The notes: generated from the sequence alone by a model not told the origin. Counted from the stretch's first letter, positions 5,283 to 59,718 are shown. The stretch: DNA of 64,000 nt from Escherichia coli (GCF_044324785.1 NZ_CP172127.1), one strand, 5' to 3'. Program-made: numbers and translations.

Positions 5283-6941
<1,659 letters not shown>

Positions 6942-15327: not shown

Positions 15328-15403
15328 GCCCGGATAGCTCAGTCGGTAGAGCAGGGGATTGAAAATCCCCGTGTCCTTGGTTCGATTCCGAGTCCGGGCA
15401 CCA
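15328..15403 (+). tRNA. pheU: tRNA-Phe (GAA anticodon)
   Basis: exact 76-nt match to the E. coli tRNA-Phe sequence GCCCGGATAGCTCAGTCGGTAGAGCAGGGGATTGAAAATCCCC...GGGCACCA; K-12 position next to yjdC. Confidence 0.97.
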
Positions 15404-15579
15404 CTTTCACTTCCAGATTCATCTCCCGAACTCCACGAAACTCAAGTATAATCACATCGTTACAAGCAATCTGAACATCCTGAACTCCACCGAACTCTAC
15501 TGAACTCTCTCTCAATCAAGCGTTCATTGGGGGCACCGGTGGGGGCTCATTGTGTTCAGTCAGTTTCAGGAGCCCCCAT

Positions 15580-16764
15580 ATGGCACTTACAGCCAGACAG
15601 GTCGAAACAGCCAGACCTAAAGAAAAAGACTATAAACTCTCTGACGAACGTGGTTTATATCTGCTGGTAAAAACCACGGGTGCCCGCTACTGGCGGCTTA
15701 AATACCGGATAGCAGGAAAAGAGAAAAAACTGGCCCTCGGCGTCTATCCCGACGTCTCCCTTGCTGAAGCCAGAATCAAACGCGACGATGCCCGAAAAAT
15801 TATCTCCGAAGGTGGCGACCCGGGCGAAAAGAAGCGAAAGGAAAAACTCACTCAGAAAATCTCTGCCACCAATACGTTCCATGCCCTTGCTACGGAATGG
15901 CATCAGCATAAATCTTTGTCATGGTCTGAAAGTTACGCCAGAAGCGTACTGGAGGCTCTGGATAAAGATATTTTCCCGTATCTGGGCAAACGAAGCGTTA
16001 CTGATATCCTCCCGCTGGAAATGCTGGAAATTCTGCGCCGCATAGAAAAACGTGGCTCGCTGGAAAAACTTCGTAAGGTGCGTCAATACTGTAATCAGAT
16101 TTTTCGTTATGCCATCGCCACCGGACGAGCCACTGTCAATCCGGCATCTGAACTGACCAGTACGCTGGCGGCGCCAAAAGCTGCACATTTCCCCCACCTG
16201 AGAGCAGATGAGCTCCCTGTTTTTCTCCGGAAGCTCGCTGAATATCATGGCAGTCCTGTTACCCGCATGGCGACAAATCTGCTGCTTCTGACAGGCCTCA
16301 GAACGATTGAACTACGGTCCGCTGAATGGTCAGAAATTGATTTTGATAATGCCCTGTGGACAATCCCTGAAAGCCGCATGAAAATGCGACGTAAACATGT
16401 CGTACCACTGTCACGACAGGCCACTGACATTCTGCTGCAGCTCAAAACTTTCTCCGGACAATACCGGCTGGTTTTCCCGGGACGTTGTGATATCAACAAG
16501 CCAATGAGCGAAGCCAGCATCAATATGGTGCTCAAACGTATCGGTTACGATGGCAGGGCAACCGGTCATGGTTTTCGTCACACCATGAGTACCATTCTGC
16601 ACGAACAGGGCTTTAATTCTGCCTGGATTGAAATGCAGTTAGCTCATGTGGATAAAAATTCCATCAGGGGTACCTATAATCATGCCCTGTATCTCGATGG
16701 TCGCCGTGAAATGATGCAATGGTACGCTGACTACATTGATTCACTTTCCATCCAGGAGAGTTAA
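15580..16764 (+). CDS. P4-type tyrosine integrase of a pheU-inserted genomic island
   Basis: about 394 aa, MALTARQVETARPKEKDYKLSDERGLYLLVKTTGARYWRLKYRIAGKEKKLALGVYP..., with C-terminal catalytic region (HGFRHT...Y); located 177 bp after the tRNA 3' end. Confidence 0.88.
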   Translation: MALTARQVETARPKEKDYKLSDERGLYLLVKTTGARYWRLKYRIAGKEKKLALGVYPDVSLAEARIKRDDARKIISEGGDPGEKKRKEKLTQKISATNTFHALATEWHQHKSLSWSESYARSVLEALDKDIFPYLGKRSVTDILPLEMLEILRRIEKRGSLEKLRKVRQYCNQIFRYAIATGRATVNPASELTSTLAAPKAAHFPHLRADELPVFLRKLAEYHGSPVTRMATNLLLLTGLRTIELRSAEWSEIDFDNALWTIPESRMKMRRKHVVPLSRQATDILLQLKTFSGQYRLVFPGRCDINKPMSEASINMVLKRIGYDGRATGHGFRHTMSTILHEQGFNSAWIEMQLAHVDKNSIRGTYNHALYLDGRREMMQWYADYIDSLSIQES

Positions 16765-16849
16765 TTACACTTTGTCCTGAAATTATTCTCACAATCAATA
16801 ACCTTTCCCTCTGATCTTACAGATCAGAGGGATTCCGTTAACTTACAAT

Positions 16850-16889
16850 AAGTGATATTGGTTGTCTGGAGATTTAGGGGGACGGTCTA
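16850..16889. repeat. solo IS2 terminal inverted repeat (about 40 bp remnant)
   Basis: AAGTGATATTGGTTGTCTGGAGATTTAGGGGGACGGTCTA is near-identical to the IS2 end at 26363-26402, same orientation. Confidence 0.7.
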
Positions 16890-16913
16890 CTATAATAATT
16901 AGCAGGAGATAAT

Positions 16914-17924
16914 ATGTCACTTAAGGCGATTGCCACTGCACTCGGAGTTTCTGTCACCACTGTCAGTCGGGCTCTTGGAGGCTATGCAGATGTGTCAGCT
17001 TCCACCCGTGCACGGGTGGAAGCTGAAGCTCGTCGACGCGGTTACCGTCCTAATACTCAGGCAAGAAGACTCAAAACCGGTAAAACCGATGCTGTCGGTC
17101 TGGTTTATCCTGGACGTGATGTGCCATTTAACAGTGGTGTTTTTATGGATATGGTCAGTTGCATCAGCCGGGAACTTGCTCACCATGATATTGACTTACT
17201 ACTGATAGCTGATGATGAGCATGCCGATTGCCACAGCTATATGCGGCTTGTTGAAAGTCGCAGGGTTGATGCTCTCATCATTGCACACACTCTGGATGAC
17301 GATCCCCGTATCACACACCTTCATAAAGCAGGTATTCCATTTCTGGCTCTTGGTCGGGTACCATCTGGTCTGCCCTGTGCGTGGTTTGACTTTGATAATC
17401 ATGCCGGGACTGGACAGGCAACCCAGAAACTGATTGCTTTGGGACATAAACGTATTGCATTGTTGAGTGAAGACACTTCACATAGCTATGTTGTTGCAAG
17501 ACGTCAGGGATGGCTTGATGCACTGAATGAGCATGAACTGGAAGATACATGGCTGCGGCTGGTTTCTCCCACACGGCGAGCAGGATATCAGGCCGTGATG
17601 GAGTTAATGTCACTACCGATACCACCAACAGCTATTATTACTGACAATGACCTGAGTGGAGATGGTGCTGCCATGGCACTGCAGTTGAGCGGTCGTCTTT
17701 CAGGAAAAGATGCGGTATCTCTGGTTGTATATGATGGTTTGCCACAGGACAGTATTATTGAGCTGGATGTGGCTGCAGTTATTCAGTCAACACGAAGCCT
17801 CGTTGGTCGCCAGATTTCCGAGATGATATATCAGATAATTACTGATTCATCATCAAAACCACTACAGGTTGTCTGGAACCCGGTATTTTATCCGGGAAAG
17901 ACGATTCATCCTCCTTGCTCCTGA
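16914..17924 (+). CDS. rafR: LacI/GalR-family repressor of the raffinose operon
   Basis: 336-aa ORF with N-terminal HTH (LKAIATALGVSVTTVSRAL) and sugar-binding core; followed by operator palindromes and rafA. Confidence 0.8.
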   Translation: MSLKAIATALGVSVTTVSRALGGYADVSASTRARVEAEARRRGYRPNTQARRLKTGKTDAVGLVYPGRDVPFNSGVFMDMVSCISRELAHHDIDLLLIADDEHADCHSYMRLVESRRVDALIIAHTLDDDPRITHLHKAGIPFLALGRVPSGLPCAWFDFDNHAGTGQATQKLIALGHKRIALLSEDTSHSYVVARRQGWLDALNEHELEDTWLRLVSPTRRAGYQAVMELMSLPIPPTAIITDNDLSGDGAAMALQLSGRLSGKDAVSLVVYDGLPQDSIIELDVAAVIQSTRSLVGRQISEMIYQIITDSSSKPLQVVWNPVFYPGKTIHPPCS

Positions 17925-17944
17925 TTTTTTTATCCAGCTCACAT

Positions 17945-17983
17945 ATCCGAAACGTTTTGGTTGATACCCGAAACGTTTCGGAT
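17945..17983. promoter_or_regulatory. paired palindromic operators (RafR-type) in the rafA promoter
   Basis: two near-identical palindromes CCGAAACGTTTTGG (17947-17960) and CCGAAACGTTTCGG (17968-17981) between rafR and rafA. Confidence 0.7.
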
Positions 17984-18019
17984 CAACAGTAAGGCATCCC
18001 TGAGAAAGGAGAATGTCTT

Positions 18020-20146
18020 ATGGTTTCAAAGTACTGCAGACTGAGCAGTCCTCGCTCTGATTTAATTATTAAAACCCGTCCACATGCAGAAATTATCTGG
18101 TGGGGCTCTGCACTGAAACATTTCTCACCGGATGACTGTGCCAGCCTGGAAAGACCGGTTGCGAATGGTCGTCTGGATATTGATACGCCACTAACACTGA
18201 TGGCTGAAAATGCCCTGGGACTTTTTAGCTCTCCGGGACTGGAAGGACACAGGAATGGGCTGGATGCATCTCCTGTTTTTTATACAGTTGACGTGGAACA
18301 TACCGAAAACACTCTGAGACTTACCAGTGAAGATTCGGTAGCCGGCCTGCGTCTGGTCAGCGAGCTGGTGATGACGCCATCAGGAATTCTGAAAGTTCGT
18401 CATGCACTGACCAACCTCAGAGAGGGGGACTGGCAGATAAATCGTTTCGCCATCACTTTACCTTTAGCGGAACGTGCGGAAGAAGTCATGGCTTTTCACG
18501 GACGCTGGACTCGTGAATTTCAGCCGCACAGGGTACGTCTCACTCATGATGCTTTTGTTCTGGAAAATCGCAGAGGGCGGACATCTCATGAGCATTTTCC
18601 GGCGCTGATTGTCGGCACGCCAGGCTTCTCGGAACAACAGGGAGAGGTGTGGGCTGTGCATCTGGGGTGGAGTGGAAATCACCGCATGAGATGTGAGGCA
18701 AAAACTGACGGCAGGCGTTACGTTCAGGCTGAGGCTCTGTGGATGCCGGGTGAGAAGGCTCTCAGGAAGAATGAAACCCTGTACACCCCGTGGCTATATG
18801 CCTGCCACTCTGCGGATGGCCTGAATGGAATGAGTCAGCAATACCATCGTTTTTTGCGTGATGAAATTATCCGTTTCCCTGAGCAAAAACCCCGCCCTGT
18901 ACATCTCAATACCTGGGAAGGTATTTATTTCAATCACAATCCTGATTACATCATGCAGATGGCTGAGCGTGCAGCAGCACTGGGCGTTGAACGTTTCATT
19001 ATTGATGATGGCTGGTTTAAAGGACGTAACGATGACCGCGCGGCTCTGGGCGACTGGTATACCGATGAACAGAAATACCCGAACGGGCTGATGCCGGTTA
19101 TTAAACATGTGAAATCTCTCGGTATGGAATTTGGCATATGGGTTGAGCCGGAAATGATTAACCCGGATTCTGACCTGTTTCGTCTTCATCCTGACTGGGT
19201 ATTGTCAATGCCTGGATATTCCCAGCCAACCGGAAGATATCAGTATGTTCTTAACCTGAATATTCCAGAGGCCTTTGCTTACATTTATGAACGTTTCTTA
19301 TGGTTACTGGGAGAACATCCGGTTGATTATGTGAAATGGGACATGAATCGTGAGCTTGTACAGGCAGGGCATGAAGGCCGTGCGGCAGCAGATGCACAGA
19401 CCCGTCAGTTCTATCGATTGCTTGATCTCCTCCGTGAACGTTTTCCACATGTTGAGTTTGAGTCCTGTGCTTCCGGTGGGGGGCGTATTGACTTCGAAGT
19501 CCTGAAACGCACACACCGGTTCTGGGCATCTGACAATAATGATGCCCTGGAGCGCTGCACCATACAACGTGGCATGAGTTACTTTTTCCCTCCTGAGGTG
19601 ATGGGGGCGCATATTGGCCATCGCCGCTGCCATGCAACTTTCCGGCAGCACAGCATCGCTTTTCGTGGGCTGACGGCATTGTTCGGCCATATGGGGCTGG
19701 AGCTGGATCCGGTGGCCGCAGATGCGAAGGAATCTGACGGTTATCGCCGGTATGCCTTGCTCTATAAAGAATGGCGACAACTGATTCATACAGGAGTTCT
19801 CTGGCGTGTGGATATGCCAGATCCTTCGATACAGGTTCAGGGAGTCGTCAGCCCTGATCAGTCTCAGGCACTTTTTATGATCAGCCAGCTTGCAATGCCG
19901 GATTACACCTTACCAGGCATACTTCGTTTTCCCGGTCTGGCGGCGGAAGTGCGTTACCGGCTTCGGGTTATTGATCACCCGGACCTCCAGGTGGTTGGTG
20001 AAGGCGGTCATACCATGCGCAAATTACCTGTCTGGATGAATCAGAGCCTTGAGGCCAGTGGTGAATGGCTGGCACAGGGAGGGATTCAGCTCCCCGTACT
20101 GGATCCGGAGAGTGCGATTTTGATAGCACTTGAAAGAGCTGTGTGA
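18020..20146 (+). CDS. rafA: alpha-galactosidase (GH36), raffinose operon
   Basis: 708-aa ORF; gene order with a LacY-like permease and a GH32 invertase downstream. Confidence 0.85.
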   Translation: MVSKYCRLSSPRSDLIIKTRPHAEIIWWGSALKHFSPDDCASLERPVANGRLDIDTPLTLMAENALGLFSSPGLEGHRNGLDASPVFYTVDVEHTENTLRLTSEDSVAGLRLVSELVMTPSGILKVRHALTNLREGDWQINRFAITLPLAERAEEVMAFHGRWTREFQPHRVRLTHDAFVLENRRGRTSHEHFPALIVGTPGFSEQQGEVWAVHLGWSGNHRMRCEAKTDGRRYVQAEALWMPGEKALRKNETLYTPWLYACHSADGLNGMSQQYHRFLRDEIIRFPEQKPRPVHLNTWEGIYFNHNPDYIMQMAERAAALGVERFIIDDGWFKGRNDDRAALGDWYTDEQKYPNGLMPVIKHVKSLGMEFGIWVEPEMINPDSDLFRLHPDWVLSMPGYSQPTGRYQYVLNLNIPEAFAYIYERFLWLLGEHPVDYVKWDMNRELVQAGHEGRAAADAQTRQFYRLLDLLRERFPHVEFESCASGGGRIDFEVLKRTHRFWASDNNDALERCTIQRGMSYFFPPEVMGAHIGHRRCHATFRQHSIAFRGLTALFGHMGLELDPVAADAKESDGYRRYALLYKEWRQLIHTGVLWRVDMPDPSIQVQGVVSPDQSQALFMISQLAMPDYTLPGILRFPGLAAEVRYRLRVIDHPDLQVVGEGGHTMRKLPVWMNQSLEASGEWLAQGGIQLPVLDPESAILIALERAV

Positions 20147-20208
20147 AGAGAGGTACGGAGCCTCAGCTCCGTCCTGTTTCTCAATATTATCCCGTGAGGG
20201 TAAGAATA

Positions 20209-21486
20209 ATGAATTCTGCAAGTACGCATAAAAATCCCGATTTCTGGATTTTCGGTCTGTTCTTCTTTCTCTACTTTTTCATCATGGCAACCTGTTTTCC
20301 GTTTTTGCCTGTATGGCTGTCCGATGTGGTCGGACTGAGTAAAACGGATACAGGTATAGTCTTTTCATGTCTTTCTCTGTTTGCCATCAGTTTCCAGCCA
20401 TTGCTTGGGGTCATATCAGATCGCCTGGGACTGAAAAAAAACCTGATCTGGAGTATCAGCCTGTTACTTGTATTTTTCGCCCCCTTTTTTTTATATGTAT
20501 TTGCGCCCCTGCTGCGCTTCAATATCTGGGCAGGCGCACTGACTGGCGGTGTCTTTATTGGTTTTGTGTTTTCTGCAGGTGCCGGAGCTATTGAAGCTTA
20601 TATAGAGCGGGTCAGTCGCAGTCGTGGATTTGAATACGGTAAAGCGAGGATGTTCGGGTGTCTGGGCTGGGCGTTATGTGCGGCTATGGCTGGAATGCTT
20701 TTTAATGTCGATCCTTCTCTGGTTTTCTGGATGGGGTCAGTAAGCGCATTATTGTTGCTTCTTCTGTTGTTTCTGGCGCGCCCCAGTACCAGCCAGACGG
20801 CAATGGTTATGAATACACTGGGTGCCAATTCTTCCCTGATTTCGACCAGAATGGTCTTCAGCCTGTTTCGCATGCGTCAGATGTGGATGTTTGTTCTCTA
20901 CACGATTGGTGTGGCCTGTGTCTATGATGTATTTGATCAGCAGTTTGCCACATTTTTTCGTTCATTCTTTGACACTCCTCAGGCAGGAATAAAAGCATTC
21001 GGATTTGCTACCACTGCGGGGGAGATTTGTAATGCCATTATCATGTTCTGTACACCATGGATAATTCATCGCATTGGTGCCAAAAATACCCTGCTTGTTG
21101 CGGGGGGAATTATGACCATCCGCATTACCGGTTCTGCTTTTGCCACCACCGCGACAGAAGTGGTGATTCTGAAAATGCTTCACGCTCTTGAAGTTCCATT
21201 TTTGCTGGTTGGGGCGTTCAAATATATTACGGCAGTGTTTGACACCCGACTGTCAGCGACCGTTTATTTAATAGGTTTTCAGTTTTCCAAACAACTTGCT
21301 GCAATACTTCTCTCTACCTTTGCCGGCCACCTGTATGATCGTATGGGATTCCAGAATACGTATTTTGTGCTCGGGATGATTGCTCTGACTGTTACCGTGA
21401 TATCAGTTTTCACGCTGAGTTCTTCCCGCGGGAGCGTACACCCTTCTGTAGAAAAAGCCCCTGCAGCGCATTCGGAGATTAACTGA
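20209..21486 (+). CDS. rafB: raffinose permease (LacY-family MFS symporter)
   Basis: 425-aa product from MNSASTHKNPDFWIFGLFFFLYFFIMATCFPF...; RBS GAGGG upstream; overlaps the rafD start. Confidence 0.85.
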   Translation: MNSASTHKNPDFWIFGLFFFLYFFIMATCFPFLPVWLSDVVGLSKTDTGIVFSCLSLFAISFQPLLGVISDRLGLKKNLIWSISLLLVFFAPFFLYVFAPLLRFNIWAGALTGGVFIGFVFSAGAGAIEAYIERVSRSRGFEYGKARMFGCLGWALCAAMAGMLFNVDPSLVFWMGSVSALLLLLLLFLARPSTSQTAMVMNTLGANSSLISTRMVFSLFRMRQMWMFVLYTIGVACVYDVFDQQFATFFRSFFDTPQAGIKAFGFATTAGEICNAIIMFCTPWIIHRIGAKNTLLVAGGIMTIRITGSAFATTATEVVILKMLHALEVPFLLVGAFKYITAVFDTRLSATVYLIGFQFSKQLAAILLSTFAGHLYDRMGFQNTYFVLGMIALTVTVISVFTLSSSRGSVHPSVEKAPAAHSEIN

Positions 21487-22916
21487 TGAAACAGCGTCTT
21501 GCTTTGGCACAGTCTGCCCTTGAAAAACTTTGCGCACGTCGTGGTAATGCCTGGTACCCGATTTTTCATCTGGCTCCACCTGCCGGCTGGATGAATGATC
21601 CAAATGGCCTTATTTACTTCAATGGGCGTTACCATGCGTTCTTCCAGCATCATCCTGCAAGCGCATATCAGGGGCCAATGCACTGGGGGCATGCCACCAG
21701 TACCGACATGTTGCACTGGCAACACGAACCTGTCGCGCTGGCACCCGGAGATAAATATGATCGTGATGGCTGTTTTTCAGGGAGTGCCGTGGATGATGAT
21801 GGCGTGCTATCACTTATTTATACTGGTCATATTTGTCTCGATGATCGTGGTAATGACAGCATTATCCGTGAAGTACAGTGTCTGGCTACAAGTCATGATG
21901 GTATTCACTTTGAGAAGCAGGGCTGTGTGCTGACACCTCCGGAAGGTATAATGCATTTCCGTGATCCCAAAGTCTGGCACGAAGACGGCTCCTGGTGGAT
22001 GGTCATTGGTGCCCGGGACGCTTCTGACAATGGGCAAGTTCTGTTGTATCGCGGGACATCTTTGCGGGACTGGCATCTGGAGCATGTTCTTGCTCATTCC
22101 GCAGCCGGAAAAAGTTATATGTGGGAATGCCCCGATTTCTTCAGGTGTGGTAATTTTCACTGGCTGATGTTCTCACCACAGGGGATGCCCCCTTCCGGTT
22201 ATCGGTTCCGTAACCTTTTTCAGAGCGGTGTGTTGGCAGGGAGCTGGAAGCCTGGTTCTGTCTTTGCGCTGAAAGGGGGATTTGAAGAGCTGGATTATGG
22301 TCATGACTTTTATGCTCCACAGTCCATGCTGGCTGAGGACGGCAGGCGTATCATTATGGCATGGATGAATATGTGGGATTCACCCGTGCCCACCCGCAGT
22401 GAAGCCTGGGCAGGATGTCTGACGCTGCCCAGAGAGGTTTTTGAGCGCGATGGCCGGCTGTGCCAGCGACCTGTGCGTGAAGTCGAATCTCTGCGCAAAA
22501 AATGCCAGCCATTATCCCCTGTAAGGTTACAGGGTTTGCAATTACTGACCGAAAATGTACAGGCCGCAGAATTATTGGTGACGTGGCATACGGTTGACAG
22601 TCATGCGGAGCACTATGGCGTCCGCCTTGGAGACGGTCTGCGACTTTATGTGGATAATCAGGCCGGGCGACTGGTACTGTGGCGCTATTACCCTGAGGAA
22701 GGGTTGGATGGTTACCGCAGTGTTGAACTTCCTGATACAGAATATCTGACTCTTCGTATTTTCTTGGATCGTTCATCTGTTGAAGTGTTTGTTAACGATG
22801 GTGAGGCAACCTTATCAAGTCGTATTTATCCGCAAGCGGACTCGAGACAATTATCGTTATATGCCGCTCATGGCGATGCGATATTAACTGATGGCACTTT
22901 ATGGATGCTGACCTGA
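21486..22916 (+). CDS. rafD: raffinose invertase / sucrose-6-phosphate hydrolase-like (GH32)
   Basis: 476-aa ORF with GH32 motifs (WMNDPNGL, FRDPKV, WECPD). Confidence 0.85.
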   Translation: MKQRLALAQSALEKLCARRGNAWYPIFHLAPPAGWMNDPNGLIYFNGRYHAFFQHHPASAYQGPMHWGHATSTDMLHWQHEPVALAPGDKYDRDGCFSGSAVDDDGVLSLIYTGHICLDDRGNDSIIREVQCLATSHDGIHFEKQGCVLTPPEGIMHFRDPKVWHEDGSWWMVIGARDASDNGQVLLYRGTSLRDWHLEHVLAHSAAGKSYMWECPDFFRCGNFHWLMFSPQGMPPSGYRFRNLFQSGVLAGSWKPGSVFALKGGFEELDYGHDFYAPQSMLAEDGRRIIMAWMNMWDSPVPTRSEAWAGCLTLPREVFERDGRLCQRPVREVESLRKKCQPLSPVRLQGLQLLTENVQAAELLVTWHTVDSHAEHYGVRLGDGLRLYVDNQAGRLVLWRYYPEEGLDGYRSVELPDTEYLTLRIFLDRSSVEVFVNDGEATLSSRIYPQADSRQLSLYAAHGDAILTDGTLWMLT

Positions 22917-23110
22917 GACATATCGATATCAGTATTTTTTCTGACATTATCTGTCATTACTTTGCCAGTACACATTAATTATCTTTGCTGTGTGCTTTTG
23001 GTAATGTGTTGCGATTATATATACCAGTCTGGTGAAGAATATGAATGGTATTTTGTGTTGATACAGAGAATATAAGAGTACCCACATTTGTTTTTATTTA
23101 AGGGGGTAAA

Positions 23111-24505
23111 ATGAATAAGTTACTTTTGGGTTTATCTCTTTTTTTATTACTGGAATACAATGCGTGTGCAGCAAAAACAGGGGGGCTAACGCTTGAACAA
23201 AGAATGGCATTGCTGGAAGAACGCCTGGAAGCTGCAGAAAAAAGGGCGGAAAAAGCAGAAAGAATGTTAAAGAGTTTTGATATAGAACAACATTCTGAAA
23301 TACGTCAAATTAGTTCAGAGCAGAATAAAAAAGATGCTAACAGCTATGCAGTAGTTGAGTCAACAAAAGAAAAAACATCTTCTCCAGGTTTTCTGCTCTC
23401 TGGTTACAATGATTTGAAGTTTTATGGTGATGTGGAGTTTAATATAGATGCTGCCAGTAAACCCGGTCAGTTAGTAATGATAAGTTCCGGGGCGAACAGT
23501 GAGTCAGTGAATGAACGGTGGGACCTTAATGGCCGTATTCTATTAGGTTTTGACGGTACCCGTAAGCTTGATAATGGTTATTTCGCTGGATTTTCAGCAC
23601 AACCACTGGCGGATATGCACGGTTCAGTGAATATTGATGATGCATTATTCTTTTTTGGAAAAGATGACGAGTGGAAAGTGAAAGTCGGTCGTTTTGAAGC
23701 TTACGATATGTTCCCTCTAAATCAGGATACTTTCATTGAGTATTCCGGTAATACAGCTAATGATATTTATGCTGATGGCCGTGGTTATATCTATATGATG
23801 AAAGAGGGACGCGGTCGTTCTGACGCTGGTGGTAATTTCCTCATCAGTAAACAACTCGATAACTGGTATTTTGAGTTAAACACGTTACTTGAAGACGGAA
23901 CATCTTTATATAATAACGGTAATTATCATGGACGATATATGGAGCAGCAGAAAAATGTCGCTTATCTGCGCCCGGTAATTGCCTGGTCGCCAACGGAAGA
24001 ATTCACAGTCTCCGCAGCGATGGAAGCGAACGTGGTAAAAAATGCTTATGGCTATACCGATAATAAGGGGAATTTTGTCGATCAGTCCAATCGTTCCGGT
24101 TATGGTATTAGCATGACATGGAACGGTCTGAAAACAGATCCGGAAAATGGCATCGTGGTTACTCTTAATACCGCCTATTTGGATGCCAGTAATGAGAAAG
24201 ATTTCACTGCCAGTATTAATGCTCTGTGGAAACGTTTCGAACTGGGTTATATCTACGCACATAATAAGATTGATGAATTTAGTGGTGTCGTGTGTAATAA
24301 TGGTTGCTGGATTGATGGTGAAGGAATATACAACATTCACACCATTCATGCATCTTATCAGTTTGCTAATGTGATGGATATGGAGAACTTTAATATTTAC
24401 CTCGGGGCTTATTACTCAATTCTGGATAGTAACTGTAGATATAGTAATTGTGACATTACCGATGATCGTTACGGTGCCCGATTACGTTTCAAATACTTTT
24501 TTTGA
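23111..24505 (+). CDS. rafY: raffinose glycoporin (outer membrane)
   Basis: 464-aa ORF with signal peptide and aromatic-rich C-terminus ending in F, typical of outer-membrane beta-barrels; position after rafD. Confidence 0.7.
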   Translation: MNKLLLGLSLFLLLEYNACAAKTGGLTLEQRMALLEERLEAAEKRAEKAERMLKSFDIEQHSEIRQISSEQNKKDANSYAVVESTKEKTSSPGFLLSGYNDLKFYGDVEFNIDAASKPGQLVMISSGANSESVNERWDLNGRILLGFDGTRKLDNGYFAGFSAQPLADMHGSVNIDDALFFFGKDDEWKVKVGRFEAYDMFPLNQDTFIEYSGNTANDIYADGRGYIYMMKEGRGRSDAGGNFLISKQLDNWYFELNTLLEDGTSLYNNGNYHGRYMEQQKNVAYLRPVIAWSPTEEFTVSAAMEANVVKNAYGYTDNKGNFVDQSNRSGYGISMTWNGLKTDPENGIVVTLNTAYLDASNEKDFTASINALWKRFELGYIYAHNKIDEFSGVVCNNGCWIDGEGIYNIHTIHASYQFANVMDMENFNIYLGAYYSILDSNCRYSNCDITDDRYGARLRFKYFF

Positions 24506-25005
24506 TGCATAGTAACAAAGTATTGTTCCACACTTACATTAACGCGTTTTTCGGGCGCGTCATCAGCGATGCATACGAATGATCGCAGTCTGCCAATGGT
24601 CGATTTATCTTGGTTGCGCAGGGGCGAGCACCGGGCAGGTACCGGCGGCTGACTCTGAAGCTCTGAGTCGGGTAATTGCGTCAGGTCACGAAGGACTGAC
24701 ACGGGTATTGGTGGCAGGTGATGAAGTACTGAGTGTGGTAATTTCGGGGATGCAATGCAGGAGCTGAGTCAGGTTTGCACTGAGCTGAGGACCCGTAGCG
24801 AGCGGGTTCCTGCTATTTTTCGGTGTCAGGGGCGCAAGTCCCGACGTCGGGACTTGCCGGGAGATTGTCAGGTCATTGACCGGGTGTGAGCGGCTCGACG
24901 TAAGCGGTAGATATGCCCAATTCCCCCCGATAAATTCATTACCAAACACATTATTCAATTTGTTTTTATTTTTCCGCTTTCAGTCATTATCGCTATCGCT
25001 TCGTC

Positions 25006-25071
25006 GGTAATGACTCCAACTTATTGATAGTGTTTTATGTTCAGATAATGCCCGATGACTTTGTCATGCAG
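25006..25071. mobile_element. IS1 terminal fragment (66 bp) truncated by IS2
   Basis: GGTAATGACTCCAACTTATTGATAGTGTTTTATGTTCAGATAATGCCCGATGACTTTGTCATGCAG is identical to the start of the complete IS1 at 27354. Confidence 0.85.
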
Positions 25072-25082
25072 TGGATTTGCCC

Positions 25083-25988
25083 CTATATTTCCAGACACCT
25101 GTTATCACTTAACCCATTACTGGTCCGCTGCCGCAGATATTCCCGTGGCGAGCGATAACCCAGCGCACTATGCGGATGCCATTCGTTATAATGCTCGAAC
25201 GCCTCTGCAAGGTTCTTTGCTGCCGTTAACCCGTCTGGTTTGGGCATGATACTGATGTAGTCACGCTTTATCGTTTTCACGAAGCTCTCTGCTATTCCGT
25301 TACTCTCCGGACTCCGCACCGCCGTGTTCTTCGGTTCAAGTCCCAACATCCGGGCGAACTGGCGTGTTTCATTAGCCCGGTAGCATGAACCATTATCCGT
25401 CAGCCACTCCACTGGAGACGACGGAAGATCGTTGCCGAAGCGGCGTTCCACCGCTCCTGGCATGACGTCCTGTACTGTTTCACTGTTGAAGCCGCCGGTA
25501 GTGACCGCCCAGTGCAGTGCCTCACGATCACAGCAGTCCAGCGCGAACGTGACACGCAGTCTCTCTCCGTTATCACAGCAGAACTCGAACCCGTCAGAGC
25601 ACCATCGCTGATTGCTTTCTTTCACGGCCACTCTGCCAGTATGTGCCCGTTTCGATGGCGGTACAGCGGTTTTTCGCTCAAGCAACAGCGCATTCTGGCG
25701 CATGATCCGGTAAACACGTTTGGCATTGATCGCAGGCATACCATCAAGTTCGGCCTGTCTGCGAAGCAGCGCCCATACCCGACGATAACCATACGTGGGC
25801 AGCTCTCCGATAACATGGTGTATACGGAGAAGCACATCCGTATCATCTGAGTGACGGCTGCGGCGACCATCTTTCCAGTCATCGGTTCGTCTGAGAATTA
25901 CGTGCAACTGCGCACGCGACACCCGGAGACAACGGCTGACTAAGCTTACTCCCCATCCCCGGGCAATAAGGGCGCGTGCGCTATCCAC
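25083..25988 (-). CDS. insD: IS2 transposase InsD (OrfB)
   Basis: 301-aa ORF with DDE integrase-core features, overlapping insC. Confidence 0.9.
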
Positions 25989-26311
25989 TTTTTTGCACGC
26001 CCGTATTCAACGGCTTCTTTAAGGAGTTCATTTTCCATCGTTTTTTTGCCGAGCAGGCGCTGGAGTTCTTTAATCTGCTTCATGGCAGCAGCAAGTTCAG
26101 AGGCAGGAACGACCTGCTCTCCTGCGGCCACAGCAGTAAGACTTCCCTCCTGGTATTGCTTGCGCCAGAGAAATAACTGGCTGGCTGCCACACCGTGTTG
26201 CCGGGCAACAAGGGAGACCGTCATTCCCGGTTCAAAACTCTGCTGAACAATAGCGATCTTTTCCTGTGTAGTACGCCGTCTGCGTTTCTCCGGTCCTAAG
26301 ACATCAATCAT
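25946..26311 (-). CDS. insC: IS2 transposase InsC (OrfA)
   Basis: [56 protein letters not shown]...; the ORF-track start at 26356 is an extension. Confidence 0.9.
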
Positions 26312-26562
26312 CTGCTCTCCAATGACTAGTCTAAAAACTAGTATTAAGACTATCACTTATTTAAGTGATATTGGTTGTCTGGAGATTCATGGGGCCAGTC
26401 TAGCAGATTATGGTGCGCAGTTATACAACAGCAGTAATGAGGAGTCTACTATTTCTCTTGTTATGCCAGATGCAATTGAATGGAACGGAAAGAATACGCC
26501 AAGACGGCAATACATGATAAAATATATTGCCGTATTTAAATATTAAAATTTATTTTTGTAGA

Positions 26563-26970: not shown

Positions 26971-27368
26971 AGTTGATTATAGTTATGTCAATTTAAGTTT
27001 ATTATTATGATTTTTTATTTTTGTACTATGAATCTCCTGTATGCTTATATGTGCAGAAAATCTCATTTTATCAAGAAGAATATCAAATTTTCTCCGATAC
27101 TTCTACATACTCCATCATTCATGCTCCTTTTATCCGTGCACCGTAAAACCCCGTCCTTCAGCGGGGGATATAAGGCGCTGTTTTCCACCTAACCAGGTGT
27201 CTGCTGCTATTCAATGTATTGGCGGATGACGGATGCCGCCCGTTGAAGCAGGACCCCTCGTCCTTAGGGCGTGGAGGATGTCAAAATGAAAACTTGTGGT
27301 ATGAATCAATCCATTCATCATCCTTTCGGATCATTGCATTCAGTATAACGCTGGGTAATGACTCCAAC

Positions 27369-27872
27369 TTATTGATAGTGTTTTATGTTCAGATAATGCC
27401 CGATGACTTTGTCATGCAGCTCCACCGATTTTGAGAACGACAGCGACTTCCGTCCCAGCCGTGCCAGGTGCTGCCTCAGATTCAGGTTATGCCGCTCAAT
27501 TCGCTGCGTATATCGCTTGCTGATTACGTGCAGCTTTCCCTTCAGGCGGGATTCATACAGCGGCCAGCCATCCGTCATCCATATCACCACGTCAAAGGGT
27601 GACAGCAGGCTCATAAGACGCCCCAGCGTCGCCATAGTGCGTTCACCGAATACGTGCGCAACAACCGTCTTCCGGAGACTGTCATACGCGTAAAACAGCC
27701 AGCGCTGGCGCGATTTAGCCCCGACATAGCCCCACTGTTCGTCCATTTCCGCGCAGACGATGACGTCACTGCCCGGCTGTATGCGCGAGGTTACCGACTG
27801 CGGCCTGAGTTTTTTAAGTGACGTAAAATCGTGTTGAGGCCAACGCCCATAATGCGTGCACTGGCACGACAT
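27369..27872 (-). CDS. insB: IS1 transposase InsB
   Basis: 167-aa ORF inside IS1. Confidence 0.9.
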
Positions 27873-28066
27873 CCGACGCCATTCATGGCCATATCAATGA
27901 TTTTCTGGTGCGTACCGGGTTGAGAGGCGGTGTAAGTGAACTGTAGTTGCCATGTTTTACGGCAATGAGAGCAGAGATAGCGCTGATGTCCGGCAGTGCT
28001 TTTGCCGTTACGCACCACGCCTTCAGGAGCGGAGCAGGAAGGACATCTGATGGAAATGGAAGCCAC
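27791..28066 (-). CDS. insA: IS1 protein InsA
   Basis: 91-aa [46 protein letters not shown]... with zinc-finger cysteines. Confidence 0.9.
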
Positions 28067-28329
28067 GCAAGCACCTTAAAATCACCATCATACACTAAAT
28101 CAGTAAGTTGGCACCATTACCTGACCAAGCTTCCTCTATTGCGGCACCTGATTGCATCAATATCGAAAGTGATAAGATCCTCTCACTAGCAGGGCATGAC
28201 AAGTGTAACTGCTGATTTGTTAGCCTGTTTTAAGTTTTTTAAGATCAATTATTTCTCATTTTTTGACTTTATTGCTAGCCGTGAAAATGCAAAGCCTATA
28301 GGATACAAAAATTACAATTTGTAGGTTTT

Positions 28330-28902: not shown

Positions 28903-30882
28903 ATGAACTTACAAGACAAAGAACAAAGCGCCAAACTCTCCAGTGCTATTTGGCGTATGGCAGATGATTTATGGGGTGATTTCAAACACACCGATTTTGC
29001 GCGGATTATCCTGCCATTTTTGCTACTGCGTCGTATTGAATGCGTGTTAGAACCCACCCGTGAGGAAGTTCGTAAGTTCTATCTGGCCGAAAAACAATCC
29101 GGCATAGACCTTGGTTTAGTGTTGCCAGAAATTGCGGGATTCGCCTTTTACAACACCAGTGAATATAGCCTAGAAACCTTAGGCGCGTCAGACACCGGCG
29201 ACAACCTAGAACACTACATCAGCCAGTTCAGCAAAAACGTTCGTACCATCTTTGATGAGTTTAAATTTGGTCAAACCATAGAAGATCTGGAAAAAGCCAA
29301 GTTGCTGTATCGCATGGTAAACCATTTTGCCAACCTCGACTTGCATCCTGATGTAGTGTCTGACCGCGTATTATCAGATGCTTATGAAGAGCTGATTCTA
29401 AAGTTCGCCAGTTCGGTTAATGAAAAGGCCGGGGAATTTATGACCCCGCGTGATGCCGTGCGTCTTGCCACCAAACTGGTGCTGGCGGCGGATGAAGATA
29501 TCTTTAGTGAAAAGGGTGTGATCCGCACCATCTATGACCCAACCTGTGGCACGGGCGGTTTCCTTTCCGATGCCATTAGCCAAATTGAAGAAATGGGCAG
29601 CAGCGCTAAAGTCGTGCCTTTTGGTCAAGAGCTCGACCCCGCGACCCATGCCATGGCGCTGACCAATATGATGATCCGCGGTTTTGATGCCAATAACATC
29701 AAGCAAGGCAACACCTTATCAGACGATCAGTTACGTGCCGACAAGTTTCACTACGGCCTTGCCAACCCGCCATTTGGCATTAAGTGGGAAAAAGCCAAGA
29801 AAGAAGTAGAACGTGAGCACAAACAGCTCAAATACGCCGGACGCTTTGGGCCAGGCCTGCCGAGTATTTCTGATGGTTCAATGCTGTTTTTACTGCACTT
29901 GGTATCAAAAATGGAAACGCCGGAAAATGGTGGTGGCCGAGTGGGTATAGTCCTTTCTGGCTCGCCACTGTTTAATGGCGATGCAGGCTCAGGCCCATCA
30001 GAAATCCGCCGTTGGCTGCTAGAACAAGACTTAGTCGAAGCGATTGTTGCCCTGCCAACCGATATGTTCTTCAACACCGGCATTGGCACCTACATCTGGA
30101 TTTTGACTAACCATAAAGAGCCAAGACGCAAGAATCAGGTGCAACTGATTAACTTGGCAGATATTTGGACTCCCATGCGTAAATCGCAAGGCGATAAGCG
30201 CAAGTACCTGAGTGATGAACAGATTGACGATATTGTCCGTGCGTACGATGGCTTTGAAGCCAGTGACAACTGTAAGATCTTCCAGACTACTGATTTTGCC
30301 TACCGTAAAGTCACCATTCAGCGTCCACTGCGTGCCAAACTAGATATTACCGCTGCGGGCATTGCTGCATTTGTGCAGCAAGATACGTTTAAAAAACTCA
30401 AACCAGAGCAACAAGCGGCATGGGTACAATACCTCACCGATAACCTTGGCCTTCAGCCTTATGAATGGGCACGTTTGGCGGTTAAGAAGAATAACAATAA
30501 GGGTGACTTTGGTAAGTGCTCAAAAGCACTGGCTACGGCCTTAACTGCGCACTTTGTAAAAATTGATCCGCAATTTGAGCCTGCACTGGATGAAAAAGGC
30601 CAAGTGATCGCCGACCCTAAACTCAAAGACACCGAAAGCATTCCTTTTGACCGCGACGTTGAAGATTACTTCGCACAAGAGGTGCTGCCACATGTACCGG
30701 ATGCCTTTATTGATCACTCAGTGCGTGATGAAAAAGACGGCGAAGTGGGCATTGTCGGTTATGAAATTAACTTTAACCGCTATTTCTACCAATACGTGCC
30801 ACCACGCGAGTTGAGTGTGATTGATCGTGAGCTAAAAGCATGTGAAGCGCGCATTCAGGCTCTGCTGAATGAGGTGGCGTAA
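28903..30882 (+). CDS. hsdM: type I restriction-modification system, DNA methyltransferase subunit
   Basis: 659-aa ORF with AdoMet motif DPTCGTGGFL and catalytic NPPFG; TAATG overlap with hsdS. Confidence 0.9.
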   Translation: MNLQDKEQSAKLSSAIWRMADDLWGDFKHTDFARIILPFLLLRRIECVLEPTREEVRKFYLAEKQSGIDLGLVLPEIAGFAFYNTSEYSLETLGASDTGDNLEHYISQFSKNVRTIFDEFKFGQTIEDLEKAKLLYRMVNHFANLDLHPDVVSDRVLSDAYEELILKFASSVNEKAGEFMTPRDAVRLATKLVLAADEDIFSEKGVIRTIYDPTCGTGGFLSDAISQIEEMGSSAKVVPFGQELDPATHAMALTNMMIRGFDANNIKQGNTLSDDQLRADKFHYGLANPPFGIKWEKAKKEVEREHKQLKYAGRFGPGLPSISDGSMLFLLHLVSKMETPENGGGRVGIVLSGSPLFNGDAGSGPSEIRRWLLEQDLVEAIVALPTDMFFNTGIGTYIWILTNHKEPRRKNQVQLINLADIWTPMRKSQGDKRKYLSDEQIDDIVRAYDGFEASDNCKIFQTTDFAYRKVTIQRPLRAKLDITAAGIAAFVQQDTFKKLKPEQQAAWVQYLTDNLGLQPYEWARLAVKKNNNKGDFGKCSKALATALTAHFVKIDPQFEPALDEKGQVIADPKLKDTESIPFDRDVEDYFAQEVLPHVPDAFIDHSVRDEKDGEVGIVGYEINFNRYFYQYVPPRELSVIDRELKACEARIQALLNEVA

Positions 30883-32168
30883 TGAATGCTGGCAACATAG
30901 TAGATGCTTTCGTATCTGACTCGAAATGGAACTCAGTACCAGCTAAACGTTTATTTACGAGTAGCAAAGAAATCAATCAAGGAATGAAAGAATCTAATCG
31001 TCTTGCACTAACAATGAAAGGTGTCATAAACCGCTCGTTAGACGATTTACAAGGACTTCAATCTTCTGATTACTCTGTTTATCAGATTTTTGAAAAAGAT
31101 GACTTAGTTTTTAAGCTCATAGATCTTGAAAATATAAAGACTAGCCGAGTGGGGATTGTGCATGAACGAGGAATAATGAGCCCTGCATACATCCGTGTTT
31201 CAGCGAGTTCAAATAGCATCTACCCAAGGTTCTATTACTGGTACTTTTTTGCTCTATACCTAACCAATATTTATAACAAACTGGGTGGAGGAGTTCGTCA
31301 GAACCTAACAGCTGGTGATCTTTTAGAAATACCTGTTCCACTGATTGATATTTCATTACAGAAGCAGGTTAGCACATTCCTTGATCGCGAAACCCAGCGC
31401 ATCGACAGTCTGATCGAGGAAAAGCAGACCTTTATTAAGCTGCTCAAAGAAAAACGCCAAGCACTGATCAGCCATGTGGTCACAAAGGGGCTCTATCCCA
31501 ATGTGGAGATGCAGGACTCTGGCATCGAGTGGATTGGGCAAGTGCCGAAGCATTGGGAAGTCAAAAAGATAAAGCATATTTGCTCCAACTTTATGTATGG
31601 AACCTCTCAAGACTGTAACCAGTCTGATGTTGGCTATCCTGTTCTCAGGATACCAAACATCAAGAGTACCAATGTTGATTTTGAAGATCTCAAATATGCA
31701 AATATCAGTGATGTTGATGCTTTAACTTATCTTTTATCAAGAGGCGACATTTTAGTCATCAGAACTAACGGTAACCCTAATCTGGTCGGCCAAAGCGCGC
31801 TTTTTGATTCAAATGGGCAGTATTTATTTGCGTCGTACCTAATAAAGTTAACACCAAAGCAAGGAGTGGATACTAGCTTCTTAGTGGAAGCGATGAACTC
31901 ACTATCTGTTCGTCAAGCATTAACATTTCAGTCAAGAACATCGGTAGGTAACTACAACCTGAGCATTCCTTCACTAGCTAATACAAGTATTGCTATCCCA
32001 CCAATTGATGAGCAAAAGACAATAACGAATTACTTGAGTGCAGCAACGATAAACATTGATTTACTGATTCAAGAGACTGATAAATCGATTGATCTTCTAA
32101 AAGAACACCGCACATCGCTGATCAACGCGGCTGTCACAGGAAAAATAGACGTCAGGGAGGCGGTGTAA
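30882..32168 (+). CDS. hsdS: type I restriction-modification system, specificity subunit
   Basis: 428-aa ORF with two-TRD architecture and conserved central and C-terminal repeats (SLIEEKQTFIKLLKEKRQALISHVVTKG / LLKEHRTSLINAAVTGKIDV). Confidence 0.88.
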   Translation: MNAGNIVDAFVSDSKWNSVPAKRLFTSSKEINQGMKESNRLALTMKGVINRSLDDLQGLQSSDYSVYQIFEKDDLVFKLIDLENIKTSRVGIVHERGIMSPAYIRVSASSNSIYPRFYYWYFFALYLTNIYNKLGGGVRQNLTAGDLLEIPVPLIDISLQKQVSTFLDRETQRIDSLIEEKQTFIKLLKEKRQALISHVVTKGLYPNVEMQDSGIEWIGQVPKHWEVKKIKHICSNFMYGTSQDCNQSDVGYPVLRIPNIKSTNVDFEDLKYANISDVDALTYLLSRGDILVIRTNGNPNLVGQSALFDSNGQYLFASYLIKLTPKQGVDTSFLVEAMNSLSVRQALTFQSRTSVGNYNLSIPSLANTSIAIPPIDEQKTITNYLSAATINIDLLIQETDKSIDLLKEHRTSLINAAVTGKIDVREAV

Positions 32169-35100
32169 TGGCTGCACATCATGAAGTGCATTTTGAACAA
32201 TATATTACCGAGCAGTTGGTGAACAATGGCTGGAAAGAAGGCCATTCCTGCCACTATGACCAGCAACGCGCCCTTTACCCGCAAGATGTCATGGATTGGG
32301 TAAAGGCCACCCAGCCAGATGCCTGGCACAAACTGAATAAACTGCATGGTGTGAATGCCGAGCAGGTGCTGTTGGAGCGTTTGGAAAAAGCCCTCTCTTC
32401 CCACAAAGCTGGCAGTAAAACAGGTGGCACCATTAATGTGCTGCGTAAAGGCTTTACCATTGCAGGTTGCGGCACGATTGCCATGGGCCAACGCAAACCC
32501 GAAGATGCGCGCAATGAAGAGCGTATAGCCCGTTATGAGCACAACATTTTGCGCGTGGTGCGCCAACTGAAATATTGCCCGACTCGCGAGTGGGAAATTG
32601 ACTTGGTGTTCTTTATCAACGGTCTACCCGTTGCCACCGCCGAGCTAAAAACCGATTTTACCCAGTCGCTAGAATCGGCGATTGCGCAGTACAAAGAGGA
32701 TCGTCTGCCCGTTGACCCAAAAACCAAGCGTAAAGAGCCGCTGTTAACCTTTAAACGCGGTGCAGTGGTACATTTTGCCATGTCTGATACAGAAATCGCC
32801 ATGGCGACCAAACTGGCGGGAGAAAATACCTATTTTCTGCCCTTCAATAAAGGCCATGATGGTTCTACCTCTGATTTGCCCGTACACATCAACTTGCCGG
32901 GTGAAGATGGAGAGTATCCGGTCAGCTATTTTTGGCAAGAAATTGCCCAAAAAGATAATTGGCTACGCATTTTCTACAGCTTTGTGTATGTCGAAACCAA
33001 AGAGGTTGCCGATAGCAATGGCAAGGTTGAGCGTAAGGAAACACAGATTTTTCCGCGTTATCATCAGTTAGCCGCAGTCAACAAGATGATTGATGATGCC
33101 CGCCAGAACGGCGCAGGCATGCAGTATCTTTGTGAGCACAGCGCCGGTTCGGGAAAAACCTCTACCATAGCCTGGACGGCCCATGATTTGATTCGTTTAC
33201 GCAGCACCGATGGTAAAGCGGTCTTTAAATCAGTGATCATTGTGACCGACCGCACCGTGCTGGATTCGCAGTTGCAAGATGCGGTGCAACAGCTGGATCA
33301 TCAATATGGGGTGATTAAGGTGATTGATCGCGAAAAGAGCAGCGAGTCGAAATCAAAACAGCTGACTGAAGCGCTATTGACTGGCACGCCGATCATTGTA
33401 GTGACGATTCAAACCTTCCCATATGCGTTAGAAGCGATTCTGACCAATCAATCTTTGGCACAAAGTAACTTTGCGGTGATCATCGATGAAGCACACACCT
33501 CGCAAACAGGCTCTACAGCCAAAGGGTTACGCGCAGCGCTTACTCTAAACCTTAGCCCTCAAGAGTTGGAGCAAATGAGCATTGAGGACATTCTTACTAA
33601 GGTGCAAGAAGCGCGCGCCATGCCCAAGAACGTTTCGCACTTTGCTTTTACGGCAACACCCAAGCACAGCACCAAGATGTTGTTTGGCCGCCCGAAAGAC
33701 CCTAACCAACCAGTGTCAGATGACAATCTTCCTGAATCGTTCCACCTCTACACCCAACGTCAGGCCATTGATGAGGGTTTTATTCTTGATGTGCTGGAGA
33801 ATTACACCCACTACGATACAGCCTACAAAATTGGTGAGAACAATCTGGATGAGAAGCGCGTAGACAGCAAACAAGCTCGCCGCGCGTTGGCGCGCTGGAT
33901 GTCACTGCACCCAACCACGGTCAGCCAAAAAGTCGAATTTATTATTAAGCACTTCAAGGCCAATATCGCTCACCTACTGGAAGGTGAAGCCAAAGCCATG
34001 GTGGTCACATCGGGCAGGCCACAGGCGGTGAAATACAAGCTTGCTTTTGATAAATACATTAAAAAGCATGGTATTGAAGGTATCCAAGCCTTGGTTGCCT
34101 TCTCGGGCAAAGTCCCCGGCAAAGATTTGGGTGATGAAGACAGCCAAGACCCGCTAGAAATTGATTTCGATAAAGAGTACACCGAGTACAACTTAAACCC
34201 AGACACGCACGGGGCTGACCTGCGCCATGAGTTTGAGAAAACCGAATATCGCGTCATGTTAGTCGCCAACAAGTTCCAAACGGGCTTTAATCAACCAAAA
34301 CTGGTTGCCATGTATTTGGATAAGAAAATATCCGATGTAGAAGCGGTGCAAACGCTGTCTCGCCTAAACCGCACCTATCCAGGCAAAGACACAACCTTCG
34401 TGATTGATTTTGTTAACGATCCACAAACCATTCTCAATGCGTTCAAAAAGTACGACAAAGGCGCGCAGCTTAATGAAGTGCAAGATGTGAACGTCATCTA
34501 TGACATCAAAGATATTTTGGATGAACAGAACATATACAACCATCAAGATTTAGAGTTGTTTAAGCAAGCGCGTGGTAAATCGATTCTCGGCCAATCACCT
34601 GACAAAAAGTCACACGCGCACAAGAAACTGCTAGCTGCCACACAACGCCCTACCGATGTGTTCAACGTTAAGCTCAAAGAGCTGGTTGATGCTGCAAACC
34701 ATTGGGATCAGCAATACAACAAAGCGCACCTTGCGGGTGATGAAAAAGCGGCGAACTACGCAGAATCTCAGCGCAGTGATTTCACCAAGCAGCGCGAAGC
34801 ACTAATGCGTTTTAAGTCAGATTTAGCTCGATTTGTGAAGCACTATAGCTATATGGCGCAATTGATTGAGTTTGGTGATCCTGAACTGGAAAACTTTGCC
34901 GCGTTTGCTCATTTGCTATCACGTCGATTGAAAGGGGTAACACCAGAAAACATCGATCTCAGTGCACTGGTACTAGAAAAATTCAAAATCAAATACGACA
35001 AAGAGCCGCTTCCAGAAGCGTTTAATCAGGTACTTGAACCTATCCGCCCCAACTATAACGACCCTGCGGATCGTGAACAGGCATTTCTTGCCGATATCAT

Positions 35101-59716: not shown

Positions 59717-59718
59717 CG

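Follow-up and report, generated by a model that had tools for sequence, protein, structure and literature searches.

A solitary IS2 end before rafR, probably an old scar of the raf lineage, at the integrase-raf junction of a tRNA-Phe island in Escherichia coli

In the raf system for raffinose utilisation, RafY serves the outer-membrane passage of raffinose and RafB its import, RafA takes off galactose and RafD cleaves the remaining sucrose, and RafR represses the rafA promoter via two operators. The raf operon of plasmid pRSD2 was reportedly worked out by Aslanidis et al. in 1989, by Aslanidis and Schmitt in 1990, and by Ulmke et al. in 1997. This plasmid operon is given as rafR-rafA-rafB-rafD plus rafY (via PMC4809568). 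Chromosomal rafRABDY is already known from the literature as well (PMC6392093): the raffinose passage of that paper reports it within a large insertion in E. coli Sanji and six other genomes, including HB-Coli0 and MRY15-117, and lists the raf operon as cargo of a 69-kb insertion. Modular islands at tRNA-Phe genes, GI-pheV and GI-pheU, have been described with intP4 as their sole conserved gene (PMC11537424), and rafY is reported to be enriched in chicken-associated E. coli, plausibly via raffinose-rich soy feed (PMC12987596). The subject of the present work is a raf operon in a stretch of 64,000 nucleotides from E. coli (GCF_044324785.1, NZ_CP172127.1), hereafter called the window. Judged by its gene content, the region holds an intact module for the utilisation of raffinose, which directly follows a P4-type integrase gene as the first cargo of a tRNA-Phe island; as a locus it is an ordinary, widespread cargo module scarred by insertion sequences (IS). 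Between integrase and rafR lies a solitary left end of the insertion sequence IS2. We consider it probable that this relic is ancestral and predates the split of plasmid and chromosomal raf copies, that the complete IS2 downstream of the operon arrived later and separately, and that the module has spread by recombination in the integrase gene.

IS2, a member of the IS3 family, is recognised by a length of about 1331 bp, imperfect inverted repeats of 41/42 bp (left, IRL; right, IRR), orfA and orfB joined by a programmed -1 frameshift, and a 5-bp target duplication. The features on which the main argument turns are the following.

16849-16881, minus strand: relic of a solo IS2 IRL, IS2 positions 9-41, with its outer end towards rafR; 32/33 against the IRL at 26362-26402
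16882-16900, plus strand: 19-bp stretch ACGGTCTACTATAATAATT with a perfect TATAAT, separating the relic from 16901, where homology with other raf lineages starts; in plasmids it follows a perfect IRL
25072-26402, minus strand: complete IS2, 1331 bp, with the IRR at 25072 and the IRL at 26362-26402

The relic begins 17 bases after the hairpin that follows the integrase gene, positions 16849-16889 read TAAGTGATATTGGTTGTCTGGAGATTTAGGGGGACGGTCTA, and rafR starts 24 bp further. The solo repeat, to which the first-pass annotation of this DNA had drawn attention, is real, with coordinates right to within one base: 16849-16889 agrees with 26362-26402 at 37 of 41 positions without a gap, and on plasmids the agreement is 41/41. 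Its inner 26 nt are identical to the IS2 IRL and occur at only these two places in the window, with a chance expectation of 0.00. The relic is closer to the IRL (32/33) than to the IRR (26/32), and it has the orientation of the IRL of the complete IS2. No IS2 interior lies beside it, since the homology ends at the inner edge of the repeat, and it is situated where the integrase-arm homology stops and the raf cargo starts.

At the same place before rafR, plasmid pIP1206 has a perfect 41/41 IS2 IRL, then ACGGTCTA, and then CTATAATAATTAGCAGGAG. Relative to it, the relic in the window shows C>T at 16875 and an 8-bp deletion which takes exactly the terminal CCAGTCTA. Because the perfect IRL of pIP1206 is itself followed by ACGGTCTA, the last 8 bases of the 41-nt match in the window are flanking DNA. 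On this alignment the IS2-derived part of the repeat is 16849-16881 only (33 nt, 32/33), and 16882-16889 (ACGGTCTA) is flanking sequence that by chance resembles the lost tip of the IRL. All chromosomal copies that were aligned, the window and four others, lack the terminal CCAGTCTA, which is intact on plasmids. To judge from how IS ends are cleaved, a chromosomal relic without this tip cannot act as a transposition end.

The distribution of the junction was surveyed with a 67-nt probe against 5,426 complete E. coli genomes, with PLSDB as a second collection. The integrase-hairpin-relic-rafR junction was present in 456 records, belonging to 452 of the 5,426 genomes. Two forms were distinguished: 284 records matched the form of the window at at least 99%, and 172 matched at 88%, which corresponds to the long form; the number of plasmid places was also 172. 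The 284 short-form records were assigned to chromosomes by record size and place counts, and among the matches listed all agree with the split into short-form chromosomes and long-form plasmids. All junction-bearing plasmids in PLSDB (148/148) have the long form, i.e., the perfect IRL. Chromosomal rafRABDY islands are common, being found in ~5% of complete E. coli genomes, and the 8-bp marker may serve to tell plasmid from chromosomal raf operons in draft assemblies. One aberrant match was noted in the chromosome of strain 405 (NZ_CM132948.1, 907567-907604), limited to the first 38 nt of the probe (relic plus ACGGTCTACT) and diverging thereafter; this strain probably has an insertion in, or a deletion of, the TATAAT/rafR start.

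Among the matches listed, the homology of raf plasmids of the relic lineage starts at window position 16005, inside the integrase gene, at an IS2. This plasmid IS2 is complete and oriented as the relic, and the homology to the window beyond it is 97.3-98.9%. The plasmid remnant of the integrase gene comprises its 3' 760 bp (16005-16764), always cut at the same point, and from there the homology continues over hairpin, relic, and the complete set of raf genes; it stops at the start of an IS1, at ~24635-24700. On pIP1206 (positions 3981-6191 of the retrieved stretch) the complete IS2, an 844-bp integrase fragment, and the perfect solo IRL have together the end geometry of a 2.2-kb transposable unit with the outer ends outwards; the flanks of this unit are not duplicated (GGAAC vs ACGGT).

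The genome of the window contains a second integrase-relic-raf island, which could be located in NZ_AP045764.1 (chromosome of E. coli 23CRST007, 100% identical to the window; record position minus 2,605,380 gives the window position). It lies at pheV (4106476-4118172) and has the same deleted relic. It can be aligned to the window up to exactly 25005/25006, and its rafY is not followed by either IS1 or IS2. In this copy an IS66-family element interrupts rafR; the element encodes three proteins, all identical to their counterparts in the IS66 copy of the window (~54973-57368), and with its repressor gene split the pheV copy should express raf constitutively.

Since the junction occurs in both plasmid and chromosomal forms, it is older than their split. 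Read from this distribution, the relic is an old scar of the raf lineage, retained in plasmid and chromosome copies, and not the trace of a recent IS2 capture. The plasmid copies hold a truncated island integrase, and an island-like element with a complete integrase gene must therefore, as far as the alignments tell, have been the place where the integrase-raf junction arose. One integrase-IS2 relic-rafR junction, with the 3' end of the integrase gene, is common to all copies of the lineage, which would give plasmid and island forms a single origin in an integrase-linked element. For the first transfer, the direction from island to plasmid is favoured, because it is the plasmid integrase gene that is truncated.

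The relic may also have a bearing on the expression of rafR, where one further feature is needed.

16867-16896, plus strand: promoter-like site TGGAGA-18 nt-TATAAT, scoring 10/12 in a consensus scan, with the first hexamer within the relic; a pattern match only

The 8-bp deletion places TGGAGA 18 bp before TATAAT, and hence the relic may supply the -35 of a rafR promoter. On plasmids the two hexamers stand 8 bp further apart, and the scan yields no site on the plus strand. A tentative extension, which we would not put forward as likely, is that the relic has been co-opted: the 8-bp loss in the chromosomal branch would have made a hybrid sigma-70 promoter for rafR, the inner part of the repeat might still bind IS2-encoded proteins, and, as a second reading, a tRNA-Phe island may be the source of the classic 'plasmid' raf operon, because every plasmid copy of the lineage has the same integrase stump. 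If this were true, binding of IS2 proteins at the relic would tie the level of the repressor to the IS2 load of the cell.

How the module was exchanged is recorded in the integrase gene and its surroundings.

15328-15403, plus strand: tRNA-Phe (pheU), the attachment site and left border of the island, found by ARAGORN
15580-16764, plus strand: P4-type tyrosine integrase, a mosaic allele (PGAP annotation; NCBIfam integrase domain 3e-92)
16807-16831, plus strand: hairpin 3' of the integrase gene, 11-bp stem and 3-nt loop, read from the sequence; the last recognisable part of the integrase arm

The tRNA-Phe gene was identified as pheU because it lies downstream of aspA-dcuA-cutA-dsbD-dicD. The integrase gene follows directly 3' of it, and the integrase-relic-raf unit is found also at pheV, both in other strains and in the genome of the window. 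Compared with raf-free pheV islands (ES3, PI12) the window has 0 differences over the 1255 bp of 15404-16658, whereas 16659-16764 differs from the raf-free islands at 11 of 106 positions and from the raf plasmid fragment at 1 of 106. Right of 16764 the window soon becomes unalignable with the raf-free islands, and it shows no difference in 84 positions (0/84) from the plasmid fragment. Within the integrase gene, the differences between window and plasmid fragment number 15 in 16005-16480 and 0 in 16481-16658. As the pattern of differences switches between the raf-free and the plasmid alleles, the integrase gene of the window is by this comparison a recombinant, with the crossover at 16477-16658. 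Three further chromosomal integrase alleles are different mosaics. Strain 165 (pheV) and HCM-27C-1 (pheU) share a second mosaic allele in the same integrase-relic-raf unit, and the pheV copy in the genome of the window has a third, with several plasmid-type variants in a full-length integrase gene. Closely related integrase alleles precede quite different cargo in other islands. This mosaicism points to homologous recombination, and not to IS2 transposition, as the exchange route; for the spread of the module, such recombination within the integrase gene appears best supported, perhaps with site-specific integration at one or other tRNA-Phe gene in addition.

The history that we regard as probable would thus begin with the insertion of an IS2, its IRL lying 19 bp ahead of the ribosome-binding region of rafR. 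The body of this element would have been lost except for the 41-bp IRL, which thereby came to abut the integrase arm, and the loss would have been one event that took place before the plasmid and chromosomal branches parted. The plasmid branch would have kept the perfect IRL, whilst another IS2 later cut its integrase gene and an IS1 came to form the right border of the module. The chromosomal branch, situated at pheU or pheV, would have lost the terminal 8 bp of the IRL and gained one substitution. Exchange between pheU and pheV backbones would have gone via homologous recombination in the integrase gene, possibly also by integrase-mediated integration, without any IS2 transposition. The downstream IS2 would be a later and separate insertion into an IS1 end in one sub-branch, and IS-associated rearrangements at it would make the remaining island vary between strains.

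Several observations weigh against this history. Firstly, a chimeric query of IS2 end, junction, and rafR found no full IS2 at the relic site in the complete E. coli genomes and PLSDB, but only the IS2 of the Sx181 type, and so an intermediate for the loss of the IS2 body is missing. Secondly, a scan with RafR of ~100,000 species-representative genomes returned only distant LacI-family proteins of 27-31% identity and no close relative, which leaves the module without a source organism. Thirdly, the promoter scan gave 4 sites in 1.4 kb where 2.6 are expected by chance, and the two forms of the relic may reflect one ancestor per branch, not selection. Finally, the mosaic integrase alleles fit either direction of transfer.

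The reverse direction is the strongest of the rival explanations, although we hold it to be doubtful. According to it, resident tRNA-Phe islands received a plasmid-type module (IS2::integrase fragment-IRL-raf) through two crossovers, one within the 760-bp integrase fragment and the other further right, and the chromosomal copies are secondary. The crossovers of two chromosomal alleles (~16293-16296 and 16477-16658) are indeed inside the plasmid-carried 16005-16764, and the integrase gene of the window is, left of its crossover, identical to that of raf-free islands. Furthermore, the exact sequence of RafR in the window is a member of the UniRef cluster named 'HTH-type transcriptional regulator RafR', and because this is the Swiss-Prot name the protein is probably identical to that of pRSD2. 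However, there is no plasmid in either collection with the chromosomal form of the relic or the chromosomal right end, and the full-length pheV integrase with plasmid-type variants suits an intact island ancestor equally well. Moreover, the plasmid integrase fragment must itself stem from an island. The notion in the first-pass annotation of a plasmid operon mobilised into the island becomes doubtful for the same reason, as the plasmid copies carry a truncated island integrase.

The second rival concerns the IS elements downstream of the operon, where the complete IS2 is preceded by a remnant of IS1.

25006-25071, minus strand: IS1 terminal fragment, 66 bp, cut by IS2; 100% identical to 27354-27419, the end of a full IS1

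Over 33 nt, the two arms of the complete IS2 (IRR and IRL) show 76% complementarity. Its gene bears the PGAP annotation 'IS3-like element IS2 family transposase, programmed frameshift' and has no pseudogene flag. No 5-bp target duplication surrounds this IS2 (TGCAG on the left, GCAGA on the right). The IS1 sequence does not resume right of it, and the right flank is different in HCM-27C-1; as far as these flanks tell, one side of the element is rearranged. The IS1::IS2 junction at 25071/25072 is common to MRY15-117, HCM-27C-1, and strain 165, and the islands differ right of, or inside, IS2. A cytochrome b562 gene follows, and then a full IS1 (27354-28121), whose flanks, ATAACGCTG to its left and TGACCAAGC to its right, do not form a 9-bp target duplication. 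The 66-bp IS1 end and this full IS1, 2.3 kb further on and in the same orientation, bracket the IS2 and the cytochrome b562 gene. When flanks were compared, no target-site duplication was seen at the full IS1 or at any of three IS2 elements, namely the complete one here, that of the plasmids, and that of Sx181. Likewise, there is no duplication around the whole unit from relic to IS2, the integrase-arm sequence left of the relic being unrelated to GCAGA after the IS2 IRL. The borders of raf modules are generally IS elements without target duplications, on plasmids IS2 on the left (in the integrase gene) and IS1 on the right, an arrangement which fits IS-associated rearrangement.

The first-pass annotation had described the complete IS2 with its end in the orientation of the relic and the IS1 fragment in between, which we find as it stated, and had suggested that the two IS2 ends mark an event that moved raf. 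In this explanation IS2 captured or moved raf here, whether as a composite transposon, by one-ended transposition, or by IS2-mediated deletion, and the event would have left two footprints, one in the solo IRL and one in the IRL that belongs to the complete IS2. We consider it very improbable. In its favour, two IRLs in direct orientation flank raf at a distance of 9.5 kb, the relic lies at the end of the integrase-arm homology, and the lack of a target duplication at the complete IS2 speaks for rearrangement beside it. On the other hand, the outer end of the relic (16889) and that of the IRR (25072) face each other, both towards raf; raf is therefore outside both elements and not the cargo of a composite transposon. 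The relic is perfect on plasmids and degraded in the window, so it is not a fresh product of the neighbouring IS2, and 41 bp is too short for efficient homologous recombination. Finally, the relic is found in 148 PLSDB plasmids, in 172 plasmid copies among the complete genomes, and in the pheV island of the same genome, all without IS2 after rafY; its absence there was established by examination of pIP1206 and p10B, by the extent of the match for the other listed raf plasmids, and in the pheV copy. Because the pheV copy and the plasmids carry the relic without this IS2, the downstream element is separate from the relic. Target-site duplications at the IS2 ends, which the annotation had envisaged as a trace of the move, are lacking. 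The alignment to raf plasmids that it had proposed shows a homologous module with IS borders and relic, in which the downstream IS2 is missing and the homology on the left begins only at 16005. What remains of the capture idea is a true solo IRL at the border of integrase and raf and the IS borders of raf modules, whereas relic and downstream IS2 as one event does not stand. The recurrence of IS2 beside raf in separate lineages lends the idea some weight at a deeper time level, and the integrase-raf junction may well go back to an old event in which IS2 was involved.

The remaining rival, that the 41-nt match is due to chance or convergence or stems from another IS3-family element, draws on the score of only 37/41 in the window, where the mismatches are concentrated at the tip, but the 41/41 identity of the plasmid IRL refutes it, the 26-nt exact match and the preference for IRL over IRR speak the same way, and its probability is practically nil.

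The raf module itself is composed as follows.

16914-17924, plus strand: rafR, LacI-family repressor of 336 aa (LacI-family hits)
17947-17981, plus strand: palindromic operator-like site pair CCGAAACGTTTTGG and CCGAAACGTTTCGG flanking TTGATA, upstream of rafA, from a repeat search; predicted from sequence only
18020-20146, plus strand: rafA, alpha-galactosidase of family GH36 (Pfam Melibiase 6e-113, plus GH36 N- and C-terminal domains)
20209-21486, plus strand: rafB, raffinose permease of the LacY type in the major facilitator superfamily (NCBIfam TIGR00882 and a galactoside permease model, both above cutoff)
21486-22916, plus strand: rafD, invertase of family GH32 (NCBIfam TIGR01322, 460 bits, above cutoff)
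23111-24505, plus strand: rafY, glycoporin (Pfam PF16966 'Porin-like glycoporin RafY', 4e-148)
24506-25005, no strand: raf module tail, non-coding, 500 bp, with no protein family match

All five reading frames are intact and have the same orientation, in the order rafR-rafA-rafB-rafD-rafY, and together with the tRNA-Phe gene they bear out the placement of the operon directly after the island integrase at pheU. The palindrome pair at 17947-17981 would be the raf operators O1 and O2 that Aslanidis and Schmitt reportedly described in 1990. The tail is common to all five chromosomal copies examined (5/5), up to 25005, and raf plasmids part from the window after ~24635-24700, at the start of an IS1.

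Some further observations were made on the island. A diverged homologue of the hairpin at 16807-16831 occupies the same position in raf-free islands. The loop of the hairpin (16818-16820) reads TAC or the reverse complement GTA, depending on the allele, and the loop of the IS2 palindrome CACTTA-NN-TAAGTG (near 26352-26356) is likewise flipped between IS2 copies, TT vs AA; on sequence both look like template-switch inversions in quasi-palindromes. The gap between hairpin and relic, GGGATTCCGTTAACTTAC (16830-16848), resembles a terminal inverted repeat of IS1, GGTGATGCTGCCAACTTAC, at ~15/19 positions when one gap is allowed; strain ES3 has a genuine IS1 end at exactly the equivalent position behind the homologous hairpin. 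This likeness could be due to chance, to IS1 target preference, or to a second relic; the 17 nt between hairpin and relic match the T-rich tail of raf-free islands about as well as they match the IS1 end.

Beyond the raf module, the island has a small defence cluster (28903-35958), in which the M, S, and R subunits of a type I restriction-modification system are encoded immediately before a KwaA-family gene and a hypothetical one. Further on, at ~52743-54886 and 58339-60426, there are decayed genes of an integrating-conjugative element (TIGR03756, TraU, TIGR03757; all pseudogenes, IS1-interrupted), together with iha, a siderophore receptor/adhesin gene that is intact. The island as a whole is pieced together from many IS-bordered fragments. 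No further copy of the 25-nt 3' end of the tRNA gene, which would mark the right attachment site (attR), was found within the window at up to 3 mismatches (<=3), and the island may extend past the window or attR may have been lost.

A comparison with the related raf systems places the locus among them. The window shares with pRSD2 the same five genes in the same order and orientation and the twin palindromes that flank the -35 before rafA, but its operon is chromosomal, at pheU after an island integrase, whereas that of pRSD2 is plasmid-borne. The IncF plasmid pIP1206 (NC_010558) is 98.9% identical to the window from 16005 to ~24635 and shares the integrase 3' end, the hairpin, the position of the relic, and the raf genes. 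It is unlike the window in that a complete IS2 interrupts its integrase gene at 16005, the 41-bp IRL is perfect, the right border at ~24700 is an IS1 in the other orientation, and no IS2 follows rafY. More distant are the K88 (F4)/Raf plasmid pUMNK88_K88 of porcine enterotoxigenic E. coli (88.7%) and the Sx181-0-1 plasmid (89.5%), a third raf lineage, both with a homologous IS-bordered raf operon. Their homology to the window runs only from the rafR ribosome-binding site (16901) to the rafY stop (~24510), and unlike the window they have neither integrase fragment nor relic. Sx181-0-1 has an independent full IS2 in the orientation of the relic, 92 bp before rafR, at another site and without duplication. 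The left border at -13 shared by the three raf lineages was considered as a cassette boundary and rejected, since a coding divergence of ~11% leaves neutral flanks unalignable anyway.

On the chromosomal side, the island of the window is of the same type as the Sanji/MRY15-117 insertion, and MRY15-117 has the identical order integrase-relic-raf-IS1::IS2 at pheU. The one passage in which the paper on Sanji names raffinose or rafR is silent on the relic and on the integrase link to plasmids, and pheU and pheV occur nowhere in its whole text (PMC6392093). In the literature searched, to which the original raf papers did not belong, no description of the relic or of the plasmid integrase stump was found. 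The island also resembles GI-pheV and GI-pheU in its tRNA-Phe gene, P4-type integrase, and IS-bordered cargo modules (PMC11537424). That study makes no mention of a raf module, whereas the island of the window has one, and the closely related integrases with differing cargo agree with its modular picture of GI-pheV (PMC11537424).

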